Shown piece by piece: positions 11,791-55,336 of a stretch of 64,000 bases of DNA. The stretch is taken from positions 64,001-128,000 of the IMG/VR virus record IMGVR_UViG_3300034095_001474. One strand, 5' to 3'. The notes beneath the pieces are model-generated. The model was not told the DNA's origin, searched no databases, and saw only the letters and a list, made by a program, of their open reading frames with translations. The translations under genes and the position numbers were made by a program. Each line of letters begins with the position of its first letter. The stretch's first letter is position 1. Source of the stretch: a virus (lineage: Duplodnaviria > Caudoviricetes).

Positions 11791-13746
11791 TTACAAACTA
11801 ATTAAACTCAAATTTATGTTCTTTTTCTCTATATCAACTGACGAAATAACTACATGTACCACGTCACCTAAACGTATGATATTCCCAGTGTTATGACCTT
11901 TTACTCTGTAGTTTTCAGCATCAGCAACATATGTATCACCAATGATTTCACTCAACCTTACAAGACCATCACAACCATTATCTTCCATAGTAATAAACAA
12001 ACCGTAATCAGTTACACTAGTAACCATACCCTTGAATATTTTACCCACCTTATCAGACATATAGATACATTGCATGTATTTGATACTATCTCTCTCAGCT
12101 TTTTGTGCTTTCTTCTCTCTTTCAGACAAGTGACCACACTTAGCATCTAGTTTTGCTATGTTAGGCAAAGATTTAGATGTACCATCTAAGTACATACCTA
12201 ACAATCTATGTACGATTACATCTGGATAACGTCTGATTGGACTAGTAAAGTGAGCATAGTTCTTGAACCCTAACCCATAGTGACCAATATTTTTGGTCAT
12301 GTAGTTAGCTTTTTGCATTGTACGTACAACCAAGTTGCTAATCATATCCTCTTCAGCGGTACCTCTAACATCCATTAGTAGTTTATTCAACGTACTTGTT
12401 GTTTCTTCTGGTGTACTTATCTTGATATCATAACCAAATTGTATTATAAAGTCTTTAAGTTGTTCTAACTTTTCTTCGTTAGGTTTCTCGTGTGCTCTGT
12501 TTACCATTGGAAACTGACGACTATTAACATATTGTGCAACATGTTTGTTTGCTAGCAGCATGTATTCCTCAATAAGTTTGTTAGAATCTTTACCAACCTT
12601 GAATATAATATCAACTGGTTTGTTATTTTTATCCAATTTGAACTTGATTTCATGTTTGTCGAATGATAAAGAACCTTTTTGTAAACGTACCTTACGCATT
12701 TTCTTAGCAATCTTATCAAGTGTTTTGATTGGTTGATGAAAAGGATATGCATATGCAACCTCTTCATGTGTTGATGTTGCTAGATATGGTATACCTAACA
12801 CATTTCCATGTTCTATTATGTTCTGTGCTTCTTCATATGTAAATCTCATATCAGAATTGATAACAGTTCTACCGAACCACTCATCCAACACATGACCATT
12901 GTGGTCAATTTTAAACACCACTGAGAAGCAAAGTTTATCTTCGTTAGGTCTTAGTGAACAAAGTCCGTTAGATAAGTTCTCTGGAAGCATAGGTACACAT
13001 CTATCTACAAGATAAACACTAGTTCCTCTACCATAAGCTTCTCTATCCAATTCTGTTTCTGGACGCAAATAATGTGATACATCAGCAATGTGAACACCAA
13101 CAAACAACTCACCGTTTACCCATTCAACACTCAGAGCATCATCGAAGTCTTTTGCATCATGTGGGTCAATAGTAAATGTAAGCACATTACGCATATCTCT
13201 ACGTTTTTCTATTTCTTCTTGAGTTATTTCAGTTGAGATTGCATCAGCTTCTGCGATTACATCTTCTGGGAAATCATATGGTAATCCATATTCTTCAAGG
13301 ATACTATGTATCTCTGTTTCGTGTTCACCAGCATCACCTATGATTCTAACTATTTTACCGTTAGGGTTCTTTGCGTTATCTTTCCAATCAGCCAATTGTG
13401 CAACAACCTTTTGTCCATGAGTTGCACCATTTAATTTATTCAAAGGAATAAAGAAATCGATTGCTAATTTGTTTGAGTCTGGGATAAAGAATGCAAACTT
13501 CTCGCTAATCTCAATTGTACCAACAAATTCTGTTCTGAATCGTTCGATTATCTCAATAACTTTACCTTCGATTGACCTTCCTTGTCCAGCAATTACCTCA
13601 ATTCTAACTGTGTCTAAATGTAACGCTTTGTTCGTTTTAGACTTATGTAAATAAATATCTTTTGGTAAGTCTACGCTAACCAAATATGCTGAACCACTTG
13701 CGTTCATACTTATTTTACCTTCTAATATGTCTCCTATTTTAATCAT
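11791..13746 (-). CDS. rnr: ribonuclease R
   Basis: TIDPHDAKDFDDA, HIADVSHY, HFTSPIRRYPD, C-terminal S1 domain. Confidence 0.95.
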   Translation of the reverse strand: MIKIGDILEGKISMNASGSAYLVSVDLPKDIYLHKSKTNKALHLDTVRIEVIAGQGRSIEGKVIEIIERFRTEFVGTIEISEKFAFFIPDSNKLAIDFFIPLNKLNGATHGQKVVAQLADWKDNAKNPNGKIVRIIGDAGEHETEIHSILEEYGLPYDFPEDVIAEADAISTEITQEEIEKRRDMRNVLTFTIDPHDAKDFDDALSVEWVNGELFVGVHIADVSHYLRPETELDREAYGRGTSVYLVDRCVPMLPENLSNGLCSLRPNEDKLCFSVVFKIDHNGHVLDEWFGRTVINSDMRFTYEEAQNIIEHGNVLGIPYLATSTHEEVAYAYPFHQPIKTLDKIAKKMRKVRLQKGSLSFDKHEIKFKLDKNNKPVDIIFKVGKDSNKLIEEYMLLANKHVAQYVNSRQFPMVNRAHEKPNEEKLEQLKDFIIQFGYDIKISTPEETTSTLNKLLMDVRGTAEEDMISNLVVRTMQKANYMTKNIGHYGLGFKNYAHFTSPIRRYPDVIVHRLLGMYLDGTSKSLPNIAKLDAKCGHLSEREKKAQKAERDSIKYMQCIYMSDKVGKIFKGMVTSVTDYGLFITMEDNGCDGLVRLSEIIGDTYVADAENYRVKGHNTGNIIRLGDVVHVVISSVDIEKKNINLSLISL

Positions 13747-30554: not shown

Positions 30555-31006
30555 GGTACGTATTGAACAATCGTTACATACTCACCAATCATTTCATCCT
30601 CAATGATTTTCTCAATGATATCCCAATCACCACCAGCCAAACCAGCACCAATCATTGGCAATCCAAATGTTTTACCAGAGAACTTTTCTTTCATTTCTTT
30701 CAAACCAGAACGCAAAGCATCATAGTCTAAATCCATATTACCACTACGTCTACCTTTGGTATCGTATTGTGAATAAATGTTTACAATTGTTGGTTTACTG
30801 TAAACAGTATGAGAAATAGTCCCCATCTTTGATTCATCACCAGCAACTGTCTCACAGTCAGCTTCAAATGCTTCTGGAAACGCATTTTTAATTTGTGGTG
30901 CGATACCAGCACCCATAGCACAGAAACAGTTACAACCATGTGCTATTACATCGAATTTCCCTTCTTTGGCCATTTTCACTAAATCGCCTTCTACATATCT
31001 AATCAT
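30551..31006 (-). CDS. macro domain (ADP-ribose binding/hydrolase) protein
   Basis: HGCNCFCAMGAGIA, PMIGAGLAGGDW. Confidence 0.9.
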   Translation of the reverse strand: MIRYVEGDLVKMAKEGKFDVIAHGCNCFCAMGAGIAPQIKNAFPEAFEADCETVAGDESKMGTISHTVYSKPTIVNIYSQYDTKGRRSGNMDLDYDALRSGLKEMKEKFSGKTFGLPMIGAGLAGGDWDIIEKIIEDEMIGEYVTIVQYVP

Positions 31007-32622
31007 TATACTAATTGTTTATTTAATGTTATTATTCTTGCTCTATAACGTATATCTTCAAATGGTGTTTCAGTTAATAGTTTACCATTTTCAAAAACTG
31101 TTCTTAATTCATCACGTGATTCAACATACGTATCTTCCAATGATGTCACAGTGTAGTATTTACCAGTTGTATAGTGTTTAACCAATTTCAAACGACCTTG
31201 TTTAGATTTTTTGAATGATGGTTTCAAATCTCCATTCTCATCAACCTCTGTTGGTGATTTAACCAAATCACGGTGTTCACCATTTACTACTGCGAAACAT
31301 GCTTTTGTTGCAAAGTTTTGTGTATCTCTGTTGATATCAGCTTGTAACAATTTACCACCCATACCAAACACAATGTTTTCAGCAGAAATACCCAAAGAAG
31401 TCAACTCTTCGTAAATTTCAATAATTGAATTGATGTTTACACCATCACCTTGAATTACACGTACTTGTGGAGGTAAAACTTTGAAACCTTTATCGTTTAC
31501 GGTGTAACCAAATTTGTCAAACAAGATTGCAAACACTTCTTTTAATGTGTTGATAACGTGACCAGAATCTGGACGGATAACTAGTTGATTACCTGGAGTT
31601 GCTGGACGAGATAAAATCAAATCACGTAACTCAGTTCCCCATTTCTCAGAACATGCACGCAAGATATGGTAAGAGTCAGATACACACGCTACAATACCAG
31701 TAGGATATTGTTCCAACACACGTTTCATCATTTCAACTTCACCTTCTTCACCTTTCATAGTCATGATAGAGTGTTCAGTTGCTGGAACTGATTTACCAAA
31801 TACTGTGTTGGTATTGTAGTATTCACATATGCGTTTAGATGCAACAGTTGTATCAGAACCCATAAAGTTAATCAAGTGTGCTGAACCACCAATACCAGCT
31901 GATTGAACAGAAGATACACCTCTGAAACCGAAATCATTCAATACGAACTCAACAGCTACTCTCATGATATCTCCAGGCAACGAAACTGTTTTGTCGTAAT
32001 ATTCAGTAACGATTTTCTTAACTTCACGTGACAATGTTGCCACAGTGATTGGATACCACAATTGCATCATGATAGTTTCTAAGAAGTTTGTTAACCAATA
32101 ACAATTAGGGTCAGTGTTCTCAATAGTCATAAGAACGTTTTTAACACCTACAACTGTACCCTCTGGTACTGCTTTGATACGTACTGGTAATTTACCACCA
32201 TGAACATCGATAATGTATTGGAATTTAGATTTGTCAAAGACATCATCACGACCAAACACACCAAGTTCAGTACCCAAGTACTCATATGCTTCATCTAATT
32301 CTTCTTGTGTGAAGGCAACACCCTCTAAATATTCTTTGATGAACATTTCAAGACCATACCATACTGTTTCACTGAAACGACCACCACGTGATTCCATGTA
32401 TGAATAAACAGTTGTTGTGTTTTCTTCATAGAATTTGTGGTGCGAGTACTTATAAGCATCACCCATAAGTACAAGATTGTTAGGTTTATCCATTGCTTTT
32501 GAGATAAGACCTTCCAATGTTTCGATTGAAGACCAATCTTTATTTTTGATTGCCTCTGCCAATCTAGTTTTAATCACTTCTTTAAGTGCTAAACTTTTTA
32601 AATTTTTATTTTCTGATTCCAT
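31006..32622 (-). CDS. nadV: nicotinamide phosphoribosyltransferase (NAMPT)
   Basis: DAYKYSH, DFGFRG, PATEHS, VSDSY, RPDSG, IQGDG, FGMGGKLLQ. Confidence 0.93.
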   Translation of the reverse strand: MESENKNLKSLALKEVIKTRLAEAIKNKDWSSIETLEGLISKAMDKPNNLVLMGDAYKYSHHKFYEENTTTVYSYMESRGGRFSETVWYGLEMFIKEYLEGVAFTQEELDEAYEYLGTELGVFGRDDVFDKSKFQYIIDVHGGKLPVRIKAVPEGTVVGVKNVLMTIENTDPNCYWLTNFLETIMMQLWYPITVATLSREVKKIVTEYYDKTVSLPGDIMRVAVEFVLNDFGFRGVSSVQSAGIGGSAHLINFMGSDTTVASKRICEYYNTNTVFGKSVPATEHSIMTMKGEEGEVEMMKRVLEQYPTGIVACVSDSYHILRACSEKWGTELRDLILSRPATPGNQLVIRPDSGHVINTLKEVFAILFDKFGYTVNDKGFKVLPPQVRVIQGDGVNINSIIEIYEELTSLGISAENIVFGMGGKLLQADINRDTQNFATKACFAVVNGEHRDLVKSPTEVDENGDLKPSFKKSKQGRLKLVKHYTTGKYYTVTSLEDTYVESRDELRTVFENGKLLTETPFEDIRYRARIITLNKQLV

Positions 32623-42235: not shown

Positions 42236-42306
42236 AAATAACAGAATGGCATGTTGATTTTCAAATCCAAATTGAAGCTTTTTAATTTGCTGCAACCATT
42301 CTTTAG

Positions 42307-42554: not shown

Positions 42555-43208
42555 TTATTTCCTACCTTTTAACCATCCTTTATTAAGATAGGTATCTATT
42601 TCTTCTTTTTTAATTTTTTTGTTGGTACCATCTTTGGTTATCCAACATGTACCAAATTGTGAATTATTTTCACCACTTCCTTTACCTTTCATTACACTTT
42701 TAAGTAACTTTTTTGTTTCCTCAGAATGTTTCTTATTTTTAAAGTTACCTTCATTAGTCTCAAAATACTTTTTTTGAGACTTACTCATTTTATCTTTATA
42801 CTCTGGTGTTTCTTTTGCTTTAGCTATATTTAACATTCTTTGTTCTTTAGTGTTATTGAAATTGTTAATACCAGCTTCAGTGAAAACTTTTTTATGACTT
42901 TCAGACCAAATACGACCACCACCAGAACCACCCTCTTTTAAATTCATACAATTATTATCATTAATCATATCTGCGGTAATCGCTTTTATTTCAGCTTCAA
43001 TCAATAATTCTCTATTATCAAAGAACTCTAATATCTCTTTAACATGGTTTTTTTTACCATGTTTCCTTATACTATATCTTAATCTCTTTCCACTACCCAT
43101 ATAACCATCATACATGTTACATGTTGAGTGCATACCTATATAATATCTATTTGTCACCAAACAAGTAGTCTTATATAAGTAATGTATGTGCTTTTCTTTC
43201 CTTGCCAT
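42555..43208 (-). CDS. GIY-YIG (Seg-like) homing endonuclease with NUMOD3-type tail
   Basis: YLYKTT..YYIGMH..YMGSG..KEIL; KKHSEETKK. Confidence 0.88.
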   Translation of the reverse strand: MARKEKHIHYLYKTTCLVTNRYYIGMHSTCNMYDGYMGSGKRLRYSIRKHGKKNHVKEILEFFDNRELLIEAEIKAITADMINDNNCMNLKEGGSGGGRIWSESHKKVFTEAGINNFNNTKEQRMLNIAKAKETPEYKDKMSKSQKKYFETNEGNFKNKKHSEETKKLLKSVMKGKGSGENNSQFGTCWITKDGTNKKIKKEEIDTYLNKGWLKGRK

Positions 43209-43255
43209 ATATTCTTTTTATATAAATATACTGCAAGGTACAAAAAAGTCAAGTG

Positions 43256-43328
43256 TCTAAATAGCTGGACTCGAACCAGCGGTCTCTGCGTCCCAAACGC
43301 AGCGGAATACCAACTTTCCCATATCTAG
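43256..43328 (-). tRNA. tRNA-Pro(UGG)
   Basis: C1-G72, A73; ASL CTGCG-TTTGGGA-CGCAG. Confidence 0.88.
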
Positions 43329-43423
43329 ATAATTTACATTCCTACTCTTGTATATGTACAACCCAAAATAAACCAATATGTCAAATAACTTTCCTAACTT
43401 GTAAAATGGTGTAGGTACCAAAT

Positions 43424-43457
43424 AAAAAAACCCGAAGTCATTTCTGAAATCGGGTTT
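43424..43457 (-). terminator. attenuator terminator of cassette A
   Basis: AAACCCGA/TCGGGTTT followed by U tract. Confidence 0.8.
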
Positions 43458-43481
43458 GGAATATCTTGTAATTAAGAAACT

Positions 43482-43577
43482 TTATTCTTCATTACTCAAC
43501 AGATATAACACACCCGATACACTCGGCTTTCCGCCTTGCGTTTGTTTCGGTTGATATGTGATAAATGTTGTTTTCAT
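43482..43577 (-). promoter_or_regulatory. leader peptide A: MKTTFITYQPKQTQGGKPSVSGVLYLLSNEE
   Basis: 31-aa ORF between promoter and terminator; ATCGGGT complements ACCCGAT of the terminator. Confidence 0.75.
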
Positions 43578-43649
43578 AATTTCTCTTTTTTTTAAATGGG
43601 TTTTTAGCCCGTTGTTTTAATAAATATAACCTTCTTTCTAAAAGTTATA

Positions 43650-43681
43650 CAAATGTACGAACTTTATTTTGATTTGTCAAG
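43650..43681 (-). promoter_or_regulatory. promoter of cassette A
   Basis: CTTG-N20-TACATTTG. Confidence 0.7.
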
Positions 43682-44113
43682 TTTTTTCGTAACTTTTTTT
43701 TGTTTTTTTTCAATTTTATTCATTTCATCCCTTATTTCAGCAGCTTTTTCGTATTCTTCTTCTTCCAAAGCTATCGCCAAAAGTTCTTCAAGTGATTTAT
43801 TTTCTTCAAATGGTACTTCAGAAACTTCTAATTTCACCAAATCACCATCTTCTGTGTTCCATATAGACCTTTTGAAATATAAACCATCTGAATGAAATAA
43901 ATGTATTTCATGTGGTTCACCTAATTCATTGTCTATTTGATGTTGTTTATCAACATCAGTTATTTCTGAAAAGTTTTGTAGACTATCTATAATCTTTTTA
44001 GCTTTTTCTTCATAACTGTCATAATTTTTCTCTTTTCTAGGTCTCCCTCTTTTTTTAGACTTTTTATCGTTGTTATTAAAAAAAGCATCAAAAAGTTCAT
44101 CAAATGTTTCCAT
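43664..44113 (-). CDS. UVR (UvrB/C motif) domain protein
   Basis: C-terminal LEELLAIALEEEEYEKAAEIRDEM. Confidence 0.75.
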   Translation of the reverse strand: METFDELFDAFFNNNDKKSKKRGRPRKEKNYDSYEEKAKKIIDSLQNFSEITDVDKQHQIDNELGEPHEIHLFHSDGLYFKRSIWNTEDGDLVKLEVSEVPFEENKSLEELLAIALEEEEYEKAAEIRDEMNKIEKKQKKVTKKLDKSK

Positions 44114-52709: not shown

Positions 52710-52808
52710 TTTTCTTTTAATTTAATTGTTAATAATAAACTTTTAACAAAGGTACAAAACTTATTTCGATAAAACAAATATATTCGTAAATATTTTTAAA
52801 TTTTTTTG

Positions 52809-52879
52809 AAATTCATACTGGGCTCGAACCAGTGTCTGATGGCTTATCGCCCTCCGTGGTGCCACTCCACTAATGAATC
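52809..52879 (-). ncRNA. tRNA-like RNA with degenerate anticodon loop (Ile GAT-like)
   Basis: intact acceptor, D and T arms; ASL GAGGG-CGATAAG-CCATC lacks U33. Confidence 0.55.
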
Positions 52880-53421: not shown

Positions 53422-53528
53422 TACAGAATAAAGGATTCGAACCTTTGAGTCCCCGTGTATAGGTATCATACATACCACATTCCCAGACTTTATGTATGCT
53501 CAACCTTAAGCCACTCGGTCAATTCCAT
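53422..53528 (-). ncRNA. class II-like tRNA with enlarged anticodon arm
   Basis: D arm ACC/GGT, CATACATA/TATGTATG stem with 16-nt loop, T arm AAAGG/CCTTT. Confidence 0.5.
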
Positions 53529-53620
53529 ATTTGAGGCTGAGAAGACCTCTGTGTTGTTATAAAAGAAATGTTTAACATTTCTACGTTCCTTTCTCAATGG
53601 AACAACACAATATTTGAGCA

Positions 53621-53750
53621 TCAAGATTGACTTTTTTGTGCTAGCCAGTTACACCACACGCCCACACCTCTGTTAGGACATGCTGGGATTCGAACCCAGA
53701 CCCTTTGTTTTACAGACAATTTTGGTTTATTTGCTGAAACAATCTTTTGT
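53621..53750 (-). tRNA. candidate circularly permuted tRNA (GUA anticodon)
   Basis: 3' half (53675-53720) precedes 5' half (53638-53663); acceptor GGGCGTG/CATGTCC. Confidence 0.6.
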
Positions 53751-53787
53751 ATGCTCTGTTTAGGTCAGAGGAACCTTCAATGTGGGG

Positions 53788-53915
53788 ACAAGATTAACTT
53801 TTTTTCATACGTGCTCTACCACTGAGCTACCGACCTCTGCGAGACCAGGTGGGATTCGAACCCACGACCACGGCATTAACAAGGCTTGAATTTTTGGTTG
53901 CTGAAATAATCTTTT
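53788..53915 (-). tRNA. candidate circularly permuted tRNA-Asn(GUU)
   Basis: 3' half (53841 to ~53885) precedes 5' half (53810-53836); acceptor AGGTCGG/CTGGTCT. Confidence 0.55.
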
Positions 53916-53965
53916 TACCCTTGCAATATTCTACGCAGTTCCCCACGTAGAGTATTGTTTAACAA

Positions 53966-54601
53966 TTACTTGTTAGATGGTGTCACGTTAATTGACCCAA
54001 CTGAACCAGCTTTAGCTCTTTCGATACCAGCAGCTCTTTCAGCATCTAACTGTAAGTACAATTTAGTTACTTGTTCTTCTAAGAACTTGTTTTGAGTAGC
54101 TAATGTACCAATTTTTGCAGCATTTTCAGCAGCGACAGCTTTGTTCTCAGAGTGGATTAATTTAATCTCATTCTCATACTGAGTTTTCAAAGTTGCAACG
54201 ATAGTTGCTACTTCTTTTTTCACTGTAGCTTCAGTGTTAGTTCTTGCAGTGTCTAAATCAGAACGTAAAGTTGTTAATTCAGATGTTGCGATAGACGTGT
54301 AACCGTTAGATGTTAACCACTGAGTTACAACTCTTTCTTGGTTAGCTCTGAATGATAAGTCTAACTCAACGTCAGCTTGTCTACGTTTTTCAGCGTACTC
54401 AACTTCTAATGCAGAAATTGCTTCTTCTTTATTAGCTACTAACATAGTTAATTGCTCTGATTGGTCCGATAAAGTAGAAACTGTTGCAGTTGCTGCTTTT
54501 AATTCGTTTACAGCTTTAGCGATTTGTGCTGCTGCTTGTCCTAAAACTACTTCTGTGTTTGCAGAAGCTTTTCTTGCTGGTGTACTTTTTGGTGTTGCCA
54601 T
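53966..54601 (-). CDS. Ala-rich coiled-coil protein
   Basis: 211-aa ORF with own promoter. Confidence 0.8.
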   Translation of the reverse strand: MATPKSTPARKASANTEVVLGQAAAQIAKAVNELKAATATVSTLSDQSEQLTMLVANKEEAISALEVEYAEKRRQADVELDLSFRANQERVVTQWLTSNGYTSIATSELTTLRSDLDTARTNTEATVKKEVATIVATLKTQYENEIKLIHSENKAVAAENAAKIGTLATQNKFLEEQVTKLYLQLDAERAAGIERAKAGSVGSINVTPSNK

Positions 54602-54844
54602 ACTTTTTTTTCTTTTTTTACTTTTTTTTTTATTATATTATGATTATTATATCCTTTTTCTATACTACAAATATACGAACATTTTCTTTAAATGTCAAGT
54701 GTTTTTGTAATTATTTTTAAAAAATTTTAGTATTTAACTATTTGATTACCAATACTTTTCAATGAACTTTTTCTATACTACAAATGTACGAACTCTTTTT
54801 GAATAATTCAAACTTTTTTACAATTATTTTTATTTTTTTTTTTG

Positions 54845-54938
54845 TGGAGAGATGTGGATTCGAACCACACTTTGGACGGATATTAAGTTATATCTTTCAA
54901 TAACACCACCCTTACTTTACCAATCAAGCTATCTCTCC
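54845..54938 (-). ncRNA. tRNA-like RNA with elongated anticodon arm
   Basis: GGAGAGA/TCTCTCC acceptor, D and T arms, ~20 extra nt in the anticodon arm. Confidence 0.55.
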
Positions 54939-55211: not shown

Positions 55212-55336
55212 TCGGAAGGGAAGGAATCGAACCTCCAAATAGCAGTCCCTAATAGTAGTTTTATGCTGAACATAATCTTTAAACAGATTAACTTTTTTTT
55301 ACATACTGCCGCCTTTACCAATTTGGCCACCTTCCG
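55212..55336 (-). tRNA. tRNA with ~51-nt anticodon-loop insertion (identity uncertain)
   Basis: CGGAAGG/CCTTCCG, GCAGT/ACTGC stem, insert with AATCT/AGATT hairpin. Confidence 0.6.

Follow-up and report, generated by a model that had tools for sequence, protein, structure and literature searches.

A pair of neighbouring elements, E1 and E2, in a 64,000-nt stretch of phage DNA (Caudoviricetes; positions 64,001 to 128,000 of IMG/VR record IMGVR_UViG_3300034095_001474; the whole stretch is called the window here) is best explained as two tandem, co-oriented non-coding RNAs that are sealed mimics of transfer RNA (tRNA) and RNA partners of a phage Ro60-like protein, a reading that we hold with moderate confidence. 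These handle RNAs are probably a variant of the Ro60/Y-RNA type of tRNA mimic, of which the window's pair, one Asn-like and the other Tyr-like, would be the clearest complete examples. The evidence lies in the structure of the RNAs, its conservation and covariation, a terminal handle shared with RNAs of quite different content, a family-level link to a gene for a Ro60-like protein of the DUF2828 family, and the predicted fold of that protein; from the analogy with known Ro60 systems we infer binding of E1 and E2 to the DUF2828 protein and a function downstream of it.

Both elements, like all tRNA genes in the window, lie on the minus strand, and they share one order of parts (Table 1): handle, anticodon-like hairpin, T arm, 3' acceptor strand, a short loop, 5' acceptor strand, D arm, an A-rich tract and the handle again. 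The acceptor end is sealed by the loop, and the tRNA parts therefore look circularly permuted along the gene. An earlier note on this DNA had described two tandem elements with permuted tRNA parts, and this description is borne out, the arrangement being kept in more than 70 phage contigs. Only when permuted do the acceptor strands match each other, with pairs at 7/7 positions in both elements counting G-U, compared with 4/7 for the in-order AGGTCGG/CATGTCC, and all of the outer stems that the note had listed as bringing the ends together are present in the sequence. It was also right that the junction is not a bulge-helix-bulge (BHB) motif, as a continuous 7-bp helix lies beside an asymmetric loop of 9 nt versus 7-8 nt. 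The proposed restoration of the E1 anticodon stem stands in part: C27-G43 and G28-C42 span the break, but the suggested closing pair C31-U39 is a mismatch at a position where the relatives of E1 have CG or GC. A 5-nt variable loop follows C42-G43 in E1, before the T arm, and no CCA is encoded in the sequence at the 3' end of the E1 acceptor. In E2, U48 pairs with A15 and the acceptor includes a G3.U70-type wobble.

Single-sequence folding by minimum free energy was uninformative (z-scores of 0.31 and -0.35), so that a comparative analysis was needed. A pattern scan of IMG/VR for the handle together with the T loop gave at least 118 loci, most with the entire architecture; UUUCAGCAA is common to all family members, yet it was part of the search pattern. 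A first scan with a 16-mer pattern had returned mainly chance matches (99 of about 120 without the structure), and these served as control loci. Two types can be distinguished. Type A, to which E1 belongs, has a Lys/Asn-like body, and the pairing of C27-G43 and G28-C42 across the break places its handle insertion at 28|29, while type B, represented by E2, has a complete anticodon arm and a break at 26|27. The types were aligned separately, a joint MAFFT alignment having misplaced the outer stem; RNAalifold recovered only the T arm, the D arm and part of the acceptor from the joint alignment.

The check in relatives proposed with the permuted arrangement gave conservation with covariation in both types. 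Across the 13 type-A copies (alignment A5), 98.1% of cells are paired, against 25-43% with slid partners; P1 (the inner handle helix), the T arm and the D arm are each 100% paired and the acceptor 96.7%, with changes on both sides at 7/7 acceptor pairs and double changes at 5/7 pairs of P1 and at 3 pairs of the T arm. The CG and GC at 27-28 and 42-43 are invariant in 13/13 copies, and the anticodon-like stems of the type-A relatives read AGG/CCT, AGC/GCT and GCT/AGC, with the loops CTGTTAA, CTTTTAA and CCCTTAA. For type B (n = 37, alignment A3), 91.5% of cells are paired versus 47-59% with slid partners, double-change cells number 163 versus 21-27, and none of 500 shuffles matches the observed values. 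Here P1 is 95% paired with double changes at 5 pairs, the T arm 99.5% and the D stem 99.3%, and the E2 acceptor stem, which covaries across the family, is kept within the window's clade. The tertiary 15/48 (Levitt) pair covaries as well, since U48 accompanies A15 in 23/26 copies and G15 in 0/11 (Fisher 4e-7, uncorrected for relatedness), which indicates that the L-shaped tRNA fold is under selection. The outer helix P0 also covaries, both in relatives of E1 (GGGAA/TTCCC, AGACA/TGTCT) and in those of E2 (GAGTA/TACTC, GAGTGA/TCACTC); it is real in the window's clade and marginal family-wide (4.28 vs 3.92 +/- 0.14).

A covariance model built on type B (R1) scores E2 at 97.2 bits (E 7.9e-20) and E1 at 60 bits (E 7.7e-11), and, at E <= 1e-4, finds 156 matches spread over 100 viral loci, which often contain several each. 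The same kind of RNA appears essentially confined to phages: a scan of 185,579 prokaryote genomes, with about as many matches as chance predicts, gave one genuine-looking member (L341) among the first 120 matches listed. A blastn search against the INPHARED phages returned no relative and a single 58-nt match in the T arm. Two details of sequence stand apart from the pairing. The loop that seals the acceptor is nearly always UUGGUC in an AGGTTC sub-family of type B, a degree of conservation that exceeds what simple closure explains, and many phage copies of the handle RNA end in ...CCUGUU.

The same handle is found on other cargoes. A mini handle RNA of 66 nt exactly occupies the gap between tRNA-Gln and tRNA-Tyr in the window, with only a Pro(UGG)-like anticodon hairpin as its cargo, and the minis of relatives are of Lys(UUU) type (L224 15886-15953, L252 16287-16351). 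In a normal-order tRNA-like gene, by contrast of arrangement, the handle forms a 53-nt insert in the anticodon loop, where it is closed by a loop as TTAATCT-GTTTA-AAGATTA and followed by TG-TTCAGCAT; judged by its sequence, this gene is a circular permutant of E1 and E2 and would not decode unless the insert were removed. Another group of phages carries short normal-order handle RNAs in the leader of the DUF2828 gene itself (L150 and L180; also L120, L179 and L217), with the order helix, UUUCAGCAA, D-like hairpin, anticodon-like hairpin and T hairpin. In L180 the RNA ends about 17 nt before the DUF2828 start codon, and this leader position suggests possible autoregulation of DUF2828. A further hairpin directly upstream of tRNA-Phe in the window may be another, degenerate handle. 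Three more aberrant tRNA-like genes lie in the same part of the window (Table 1): in one, 39 nt stand in place of the anticodon arm (Rfam tRNA 36.9 bits), another contains a long insert and matches weakly, at 20 bits, and the third draws a 'Tyr-ATA' call and has an odd anticodon loop.

The protein side of the system emerged from clustering the open reading frames (ORFs) within 4 kb of 70 elements, in which the commonest neighbour, at 19 loci, was a protein of about 480 aa with DUF2828 and DUF7788/vWA domains. By tblastn its gene is present in 22/70 fetched loci, on the same strand as the RNA in 22/22 and at distances of 17-7734 nt, and in about 1 in 100 of the chance-match control loci of the first scan. 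Large contigs tell the same story, the gene being found in 9/10 RNA-bearing contigs, including 4/4 of those at least 90% complete, compared with 1/5 controls. The complete relative G002 has an orthologous E1+E2 pair and a DUF2828 gene at 64702-66135. For the AlphaFold (AF2) model of its product (pLDDT, the predicted local distance difference test, 76.5), the top 13 matches in the PDB are all of Ro60 type and full length (about 500 columns, E 9e-10 to 1e-4, template-modelling score 0.5-0.6), with the Ro60 of Thermus phage phiLo as the best and Deinococcus Rsr and Xenopus and human Ro60 among them; the sequence profile of the protein reaches just E 0.11 to a TROVE chain. The DUF2828+DUF7788 protein is thus predicted by the model to have a Ro60 fold, with a HEAT-repeat ring followed by a vWA domain. 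PHROGs labels the family "RNA-binding protein", and DUF2828 occurs in plants and amoebae too. On the minus strand of G002 (63900-64702), AAAAGTTGTA-TGCAGCAA stands about 65 nt past the DUF2828 stop, with structured sequence and a hairpin resembling a terminator after it; this region may be a candidate handle RNA beside the gene in the window's own clade.

The permuted order has a published counterpart in the YrlA RNAs. There, the paired ends enclose V, T, a closed stem-loop that resembles an acceptor, and D, in that order, the putative Ro60 contact is a 5' motif, GNCGAAN0-1G, the 15/48 pair shows compensation, the RNA is encoded at most 4 kb from Ro60 on the same strand, and the Mycobacterium smegmatis YrlA, with a 7-bp acceptor stem, is in vivo both cleaved by RNase P and extended by CCA (Chen et al. 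2014, PMC4201824). Since YrlA displays the order T, closed acceptor, D, the permuted topology is a known design of bacterial and phage Y RNAs, and the view of the earlier note that no such thing is known from bacteria or phages is unsupported. Our comparison covered YrlA of Salmonella, M. smegmatis and mycobacteriophages through Rfam model RF02553, which matches E1 over the full model length at 41.4 bits (E 4.5e-7) and E2 partially at 17.5 bits. Likenesses extend from the paired ends and a short conserved single-stranded motif after the 5' strand, through the interior stem-loop, T arm, closed acceptor and D arm and the 15/48 covariation, to the frequent tandem occurrence of two or more RNAs and the associated Ro60-fold protein with ring plus vWA. 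In contrast to YrlA, E2 has a complete anticodon arm of 5 bp and 7 nt with a hypervariable triplet, the handle family has swapped cargoes (in one form just an anticodon hairpin, in another a tRNA whose anticodon loop houses the handle), and the partner is a DUF2828/DUF7788 protein that Pfam TROVE does not recognise and whose gene is tens of kb away in the window's clade.

Other known systems resemble the handle RNAs in single respects. In Cyanidioschyzon merolae, some green algae and Thermofilum pendens, permuted tRNA genes likewise place the 3' half first, join the acceptors by a short linker and pair their ends; those genes, however, rely on a BHB, a splicing endonuclease and a ligase to supply otherwise missing tRNAs, whereas E1 and E2 come with no BHB, with no EndA or RtcB in the relatives' contigs, with redundant canonical tRNAs and with a terminal module that also occurs on non-tRNA cargoes. 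In the two-piece permuted transfer-messenger RNA (tmRNA) genes of alpha-proteobacteria and cyanobacteria, the T arm and 3' acceptor precede the 5' acceptor. They share with our elements a permuted tRNA-like domain and, with E2, the G3.U70-type wobble, but E1 and E2, at about 125 nt, have neither a tag frame nor pseudoknots, the G.U is not kept family-wide, and Rfam RF04321 (two-piece tmRNA) gives only 14.6 bits, at chance level. Phage Ro60 itself has a precedent in phiLo, whose protein binds two Y-like RNAs of the phage and is able to engage host PNPase, for which hijacking of the host exoribonuclease has been proposed (PMC12135203; PDB 9KOP, 9L5Y). That system resembles ours in uniting a phage-encoded Ro60-fold protein, the best match of the DUF2828 model, with phage Y-like RNAs (Yrl1/Yrl2), and differs in its recognisable TROVE domain and in RNAs that have a CGAA bulge, are encoded immediately upstream of the gene and are described without a tRNA-like body. 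The Class I RNAs of dictyostelids, finally, have a covarying stem that joins the ends, a conserved 11-nt motif beside the 5' strand, a variable interior and a 3' end CUGU (Kjellin et al. 2021, PMC7919456). By architectural description only, the end-joining stem, the motif and the CUGU recall the phage copies that end in ...CCUGUU, although Class I RNAs are eukaryotic, 42-65 nt long and devoid of a tRNA-like body. The literature that we searched held no report of the handle-RNA family or of an RNA partner for DUF2828.

These comparisons suggest how a handle RNA might work. P0 and P1 close the ends of the RNA and leave UUUCAGCAA exposed as a single strand after the 5' strand, opposite the A-rich strand. 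The handle carries a cargo, which in E1 and E2 is a whole tRNA look-alike with a 7-bp, loop-sealed acceptor stem, and would dock on the DUF2828+vWA Ro60-like ring as the 5'-strand motif of a Y RNA does on Ro60. The tRNA mimic would then act as an effector module, tethering or gating the ring to tRNA-recognising partners such as an exoribonuclease, or alternatively occupying proteins that read a particular anticodon arm. Rsr acts with PNPase, RNase II and RNase PH, and an RNase II/R-type enzyme is encoded in the window and again in the relatives G001 (43031-44080) and G002 (311104-312150); by analogy it could conceivably be a partner of the Ro-like ribonucleoprotein.

A number of observations weigh against this account. 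Neither a TROVE nor a DUF2828 gene lies within the 64-kb window, G001, the closest relative (58% complete), shows no DUF2828 gene, and in G002 about 65 kb separate this gene from the E1/E2 pair, so that proximity within 4 kb fails in this clade. Pfam TROVE matches nothing in the relatives' contigs, and no binding data for DUF2828 were found in the searchable literature. On the RNA side, the RF02553 scores of E1 and E2 both fall below the gathering threshold of 69 bits, and GNCGAAN0-1G is absent from E1, E2 and all relatives, UUUCAGCAA being analogous to it only in position. An anticodon arm that is complete, keeps U33 and a purine at 37 and leaves the triplet free is not a trait of YrlA and hints at an anticodon-specific function. 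Relatives also encode Rnl1- and Rnl2-type ATP-dependent RNA ligases, which make ligation enzymatically possible, and given these enzymes and a 7-bp acceptor of the kind that RNase P can open, some processing of the mimic may occur.

Could E1 and E2 instead be true permuted genes for a working tRNA-Asn and tRNA-Tyr? We consider this improbable. Such genes would mature in one of two ways. The transcript would be cut at the handle, its ends ligated and its acceptor loop opened, or RNase P, 3' trimming and CCA addition would suffice and yield a two-piece tRNA held by the handle helix. In native order neither element is called by ARAGORN or, in a gathering scan, by the Rfam tRNA model. The tRNA call anticipated after in-silico re-permutation is readily obtained from ARAGORN for E2, as Tyr-GTA with 69 junction choices, and much less so for E1, as Asn-GTT with just 9 and with a C.U closing pair; re-permuted family members give class-I calls in 74/80 cases. 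The type-B anticodon loop keeps U33 in 36/37 copies and A37/A38 in 33/37, E1-type bodies are Lys/Asn-like and have Asn or Lys triplets, the cleavage and CCA addition seen with M. smegmatis YrlA and the Rnl1 and Rnl2 ligases of the relatives would suit the two routes, and the handle's two positions, terminal in permuted units and within the anticodon loop of a normal-order unit, are a formal parallel to the use of the BHB in Cyanidioschyzon. The same handle, however, sits on RNAs without an acceptor, T or D arm, which are unable to decode, and this argues against a decoding role. Positions 34-36 are the most variable columns of type B (1.47, 1.96 and 1.04 bits), and the body stays constant across 17 different triplets, including Ser, Tyr and Leu triplets without a long variable arm. 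Bacterial Ser, Tyr and Leu tRNAs carry such an arm. Canonical tRNAs with the same anticodons exist (Tyr-GTA in the window; two Asn-GTT and two Tyr-GTA in G002), and gap-filling is not seen family-wide, the triplet equalling that of a local canonical tRNA in 12/56 cases against 13.9 +/- 2.7 expected. The base after the 3' acceptor strand in GTT-type copies is C, T, C, A, T, G, G and A, so the discriminator equivalent is unconserved; the distance from motif to junction varies; and beside the missing BHB, EndA (PF01974) and RtcB were not found in the contigs of five relatives. E1 and E2 are most likely not genes for decoding tRNAs, and with the handle on non-decoding RNAs and canonical tRNAs redundant, maturation through circular or rejoined intermediates is unsupported.

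The Ro/Y analogy does not explain the hypervariable triplet, which leaves room for an anticodon-specific role such as that of a decoy. The family might be a programmable set of mimics in which the handle loads the Ro60-like ring and a freely evolving triplet, on a sealed tRNA body or on a bare anticodon hairpin, picks the host factor to be captured, blocked or given to the exoribonuclease, with defence anticodon nucleases, modification enzymes and the ribosome as candidate factors; we give this version a low probability, and a variant of it would make E1 and E2 two-piece tRNAs after RNase P opening and CCA addition. Also unlikely, to a similar degree, is that they are anticodon-specific decoys or sponges for tRNA-targeting nucleases or loop-modifying enzymes that need no Ro60-like protein, the handle doing no more than stabilising the RNA and allowing it to be excised from the transcript of the tRNA operon. 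The anticodon-like hairpin is indeed the constant cargo element across the types, the triplet is the most variable part of a conserved loop, as an arms race predicts, and the elements sit inside phage tRNA arrays. The tRNAs that E1 (GUU) and E2 (GUA) imitate belong to the G34-U35 group, Lys-type triplets are found in relatives, and anticodon nucleases such as PrrC, PARIS/AriB, PtuAB and colicin E5 target Lys, Tyr and Asn tRNAs. Decoys of this kind leave the invariant UUUCAGCAA and the same-strand linkage and co-occurrence with DUF2828 unexplained, our literature search found nothing relevant on tRNA-like decoys or on permuted tRNAs in phages, and the idea is compatible with a Ro60-like partnership in that the ribonucleoprotein itself could be the decoy. 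Very improbable is the last alternative, that the elements are passive processing punctuation (RNase P, Z or E sites), decaying rearranged tRNA pseudogenes or an assembly artefact. They do lie in tRNA-rich DNA with several aberrant tRNA-like genes adjoining, and they follow the ORF 54601..53966 with no TAnnTTTG-like box before E1. Yet compensatory changes in all helices and in the tertiary pair, across more than 70 contigs, exclude decay and artefact, and punctuation has no need for a conserved 9-nt single-stranded motif or for linkage to one protein family. The assembly rearrangement that had been named as a possible refutation is countered by the same order in independent IMG/VR contigs (L005, L072, L077) and in DNA runs, 13 of which contain at least half of the stretch's words.

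RNA data were available from eight metatranscriptome runs as assembled contigs, in which ends and strand are unreadable. Most pieces are unrelated tRNAs with a match of 19-20 nt to the T or D arm, and a few contigs from relatives span E2, or E2, spacer and E1, in collinear genomic order. No rejoined joints were seen in these contigs, which counts only weakly against a decoding role as such contigs miss small or rare RNAs, and the data are no proof of transcription and leave room for processing. A scan for terminators and promoters made no minus-strand call around E1 and E2; a possible weak terminator after E2, found by eye, escaped it because the hairpin has fewer than three G-C pairs. The Ala/Glu-rich ORF immediately upstream of E1 keeps that position in 6 loci and is covered by RNA-library contigs from four runs. 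With the nearest minus-strand TAnnTTTG boxes at 54675 and 54788, upstream of this ORF, and none between it and E1, the sequence is consistent with co-transcription, and E1 and E2 may be transcribed together with the ORF.

Besides DUF2828, recurrent neighbours of the handle RNAs are a dual-specificity phosphatase-like protein (12 loci), an AAA_33/polynucleotide-kinase-like protein (9 loci), an Rpb6/omega-like protein (8 loci) and a metallophosphoesterase (7 loci), a set with a flavour of RNA end-healing or repair.

Table 1. Coordinates of E1, E2 and other features (window positions unless a locus is named).
Feature	Position	Strand	Details
E1 core	53916..53787	-	sequence
E1 entire handle RNA, including P0	53787..53920	-	type A (Lys/Asn-like body, permuted)
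E1 P0 outer helix	GGG 53920-53918 with CCC(C) 53787-53784	-	short
E1 P1 helix	AAGATTA 53913-53907 with TAATCTT 53796-53790	-	
E1 handle 5' side	53898..53913	-	P1 strand and UUUCAGCAA
E1 single-stranded UUUCAGCAA	53906-53898	-	A-rich spacer after
E1 anticodon-like hairpin GCC/UUGUUAA/UGC	53873..53885	-	3 pairs, innermost C.U
E1 triplet GTT	53880-53878	-	in 7-nt loop UUGUUAA
E1 C42-G43 equivalents	53871..53872	-	trans pairing with C27-G28 53811-53810
E1 T arm GTGGG-TTCGAAT-CCCAC	53849..53865	-	perfect stem
E1 closed acceptor stem-loop	53830..53848	-	CTGGTCT 53848-53842, CGCAG loop, AGGTCGG 53836-53830
E1 U8-A9, D arm, A26-C27-G28	53810..53829	-	sequence
E1 D arm GCTC-AGTGGTA-GAGC	53827-53813	-	A-C-G after, 53812-53810
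E1 handle 3' side	53790..53809	-	UAUG-A7-G, U, P1 strand TAATCTT
E2 core	53749..53620	-	sequence
E2 entire handle RNA, including P0	53616..53756	-	type B (complete tRNA mimic, break 26|27)
E2 P0 outer helix	GAGCAT 53756-53751 with ATGCTC 53621-53616	-	
E2 P1 helix	AAGATTG 53746-53740 with CAATCTT 53629-53623	-	
E2 handle 5' side	53731..53746	-	P1 strand and UUUCAGCAA, the latter at 53739-53731
E2 anticodon-like stem-loop ATTGT-CTGTAAA-ACAAA	53704..53720	-	full 5 bp, 7-nt loop
E2 triplet GTA	53713-53711	-	loop CUGUAAA
E2 variable loop GGGT and T arm CTGGG-TTCGAAT-CCCAG	53683..53703	-	T arm 53699-53683
E2 closed acceptor stem-loop	53657..53682	-	CATGTCC 53682-53676, 12-nt loop, GGGCGTG 53663-53657
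E2 U8-G9, D arm, A6G tract, U, P1 strand	53623..53656	-	
E2 D arm GTGT-AACTGGCTA-GCAC	53654-53638	-	
Mini handle RNA, 66 nt	42305..42240	-	helix AGAATGG...CCATTCT with UGCAGCAA; covariance model R1 27.7 bits
Normal-order tRNA-like gene	55336..55212	-	Rfam tRNA 47.5 bits; 53-nt anticodon-loop insert
Aberrant tRNA-like genes	54845-54938, 53422-53519, 52808-52879	-	
Hairpin with unpaired UGCAGCAA	55425-55475	-	directly upstream of tRNA-Phe (55423)
Possible weak intrinsic terminator after E2	53561..53581	-	AT-rich 7-bp hairpin and UUUU, by eye
211-aa Ala/Glu-rich ORF	53966-54601	-	no Pfam family; PHROG 9325; coiled-coil-like by eye
RNase II/R-type exoribonuclease	11791-13746	-	RNB, CSD, S1; E 2e-109
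NAMPT/NAPRTase gene	31006-32622	-	
Recurrent neighbours around type-B elements, example loci	L212 2307-2951, L217 2965-3492, L203 3298-3957, L127 792-1175		

If the Ro60-like partnership of the handle RNAs is correct, large phages of many lineages would hold a second, uncatalogued branch of the Ro60/Y-RNA system, made up of a divergent DUF2828 ring protein and an RNA family absent from Rfam whose members include, at one extreme, an anticodon hairpin on its own and, at the other, a complete tRNA mimic with a sealed end. DUF2828 would gain a testable function, and the clusters of tRNA genes in phages would have inhabitants that tRNA finders miss or mis-call. For annotation, permuted or aberrant tRNA-like genes should be left out when the decoders in phage tRNA arrays are counted. 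The family would also be a clean natural example of tRNA mimicry with an anticodon triplet that is free to evolve.

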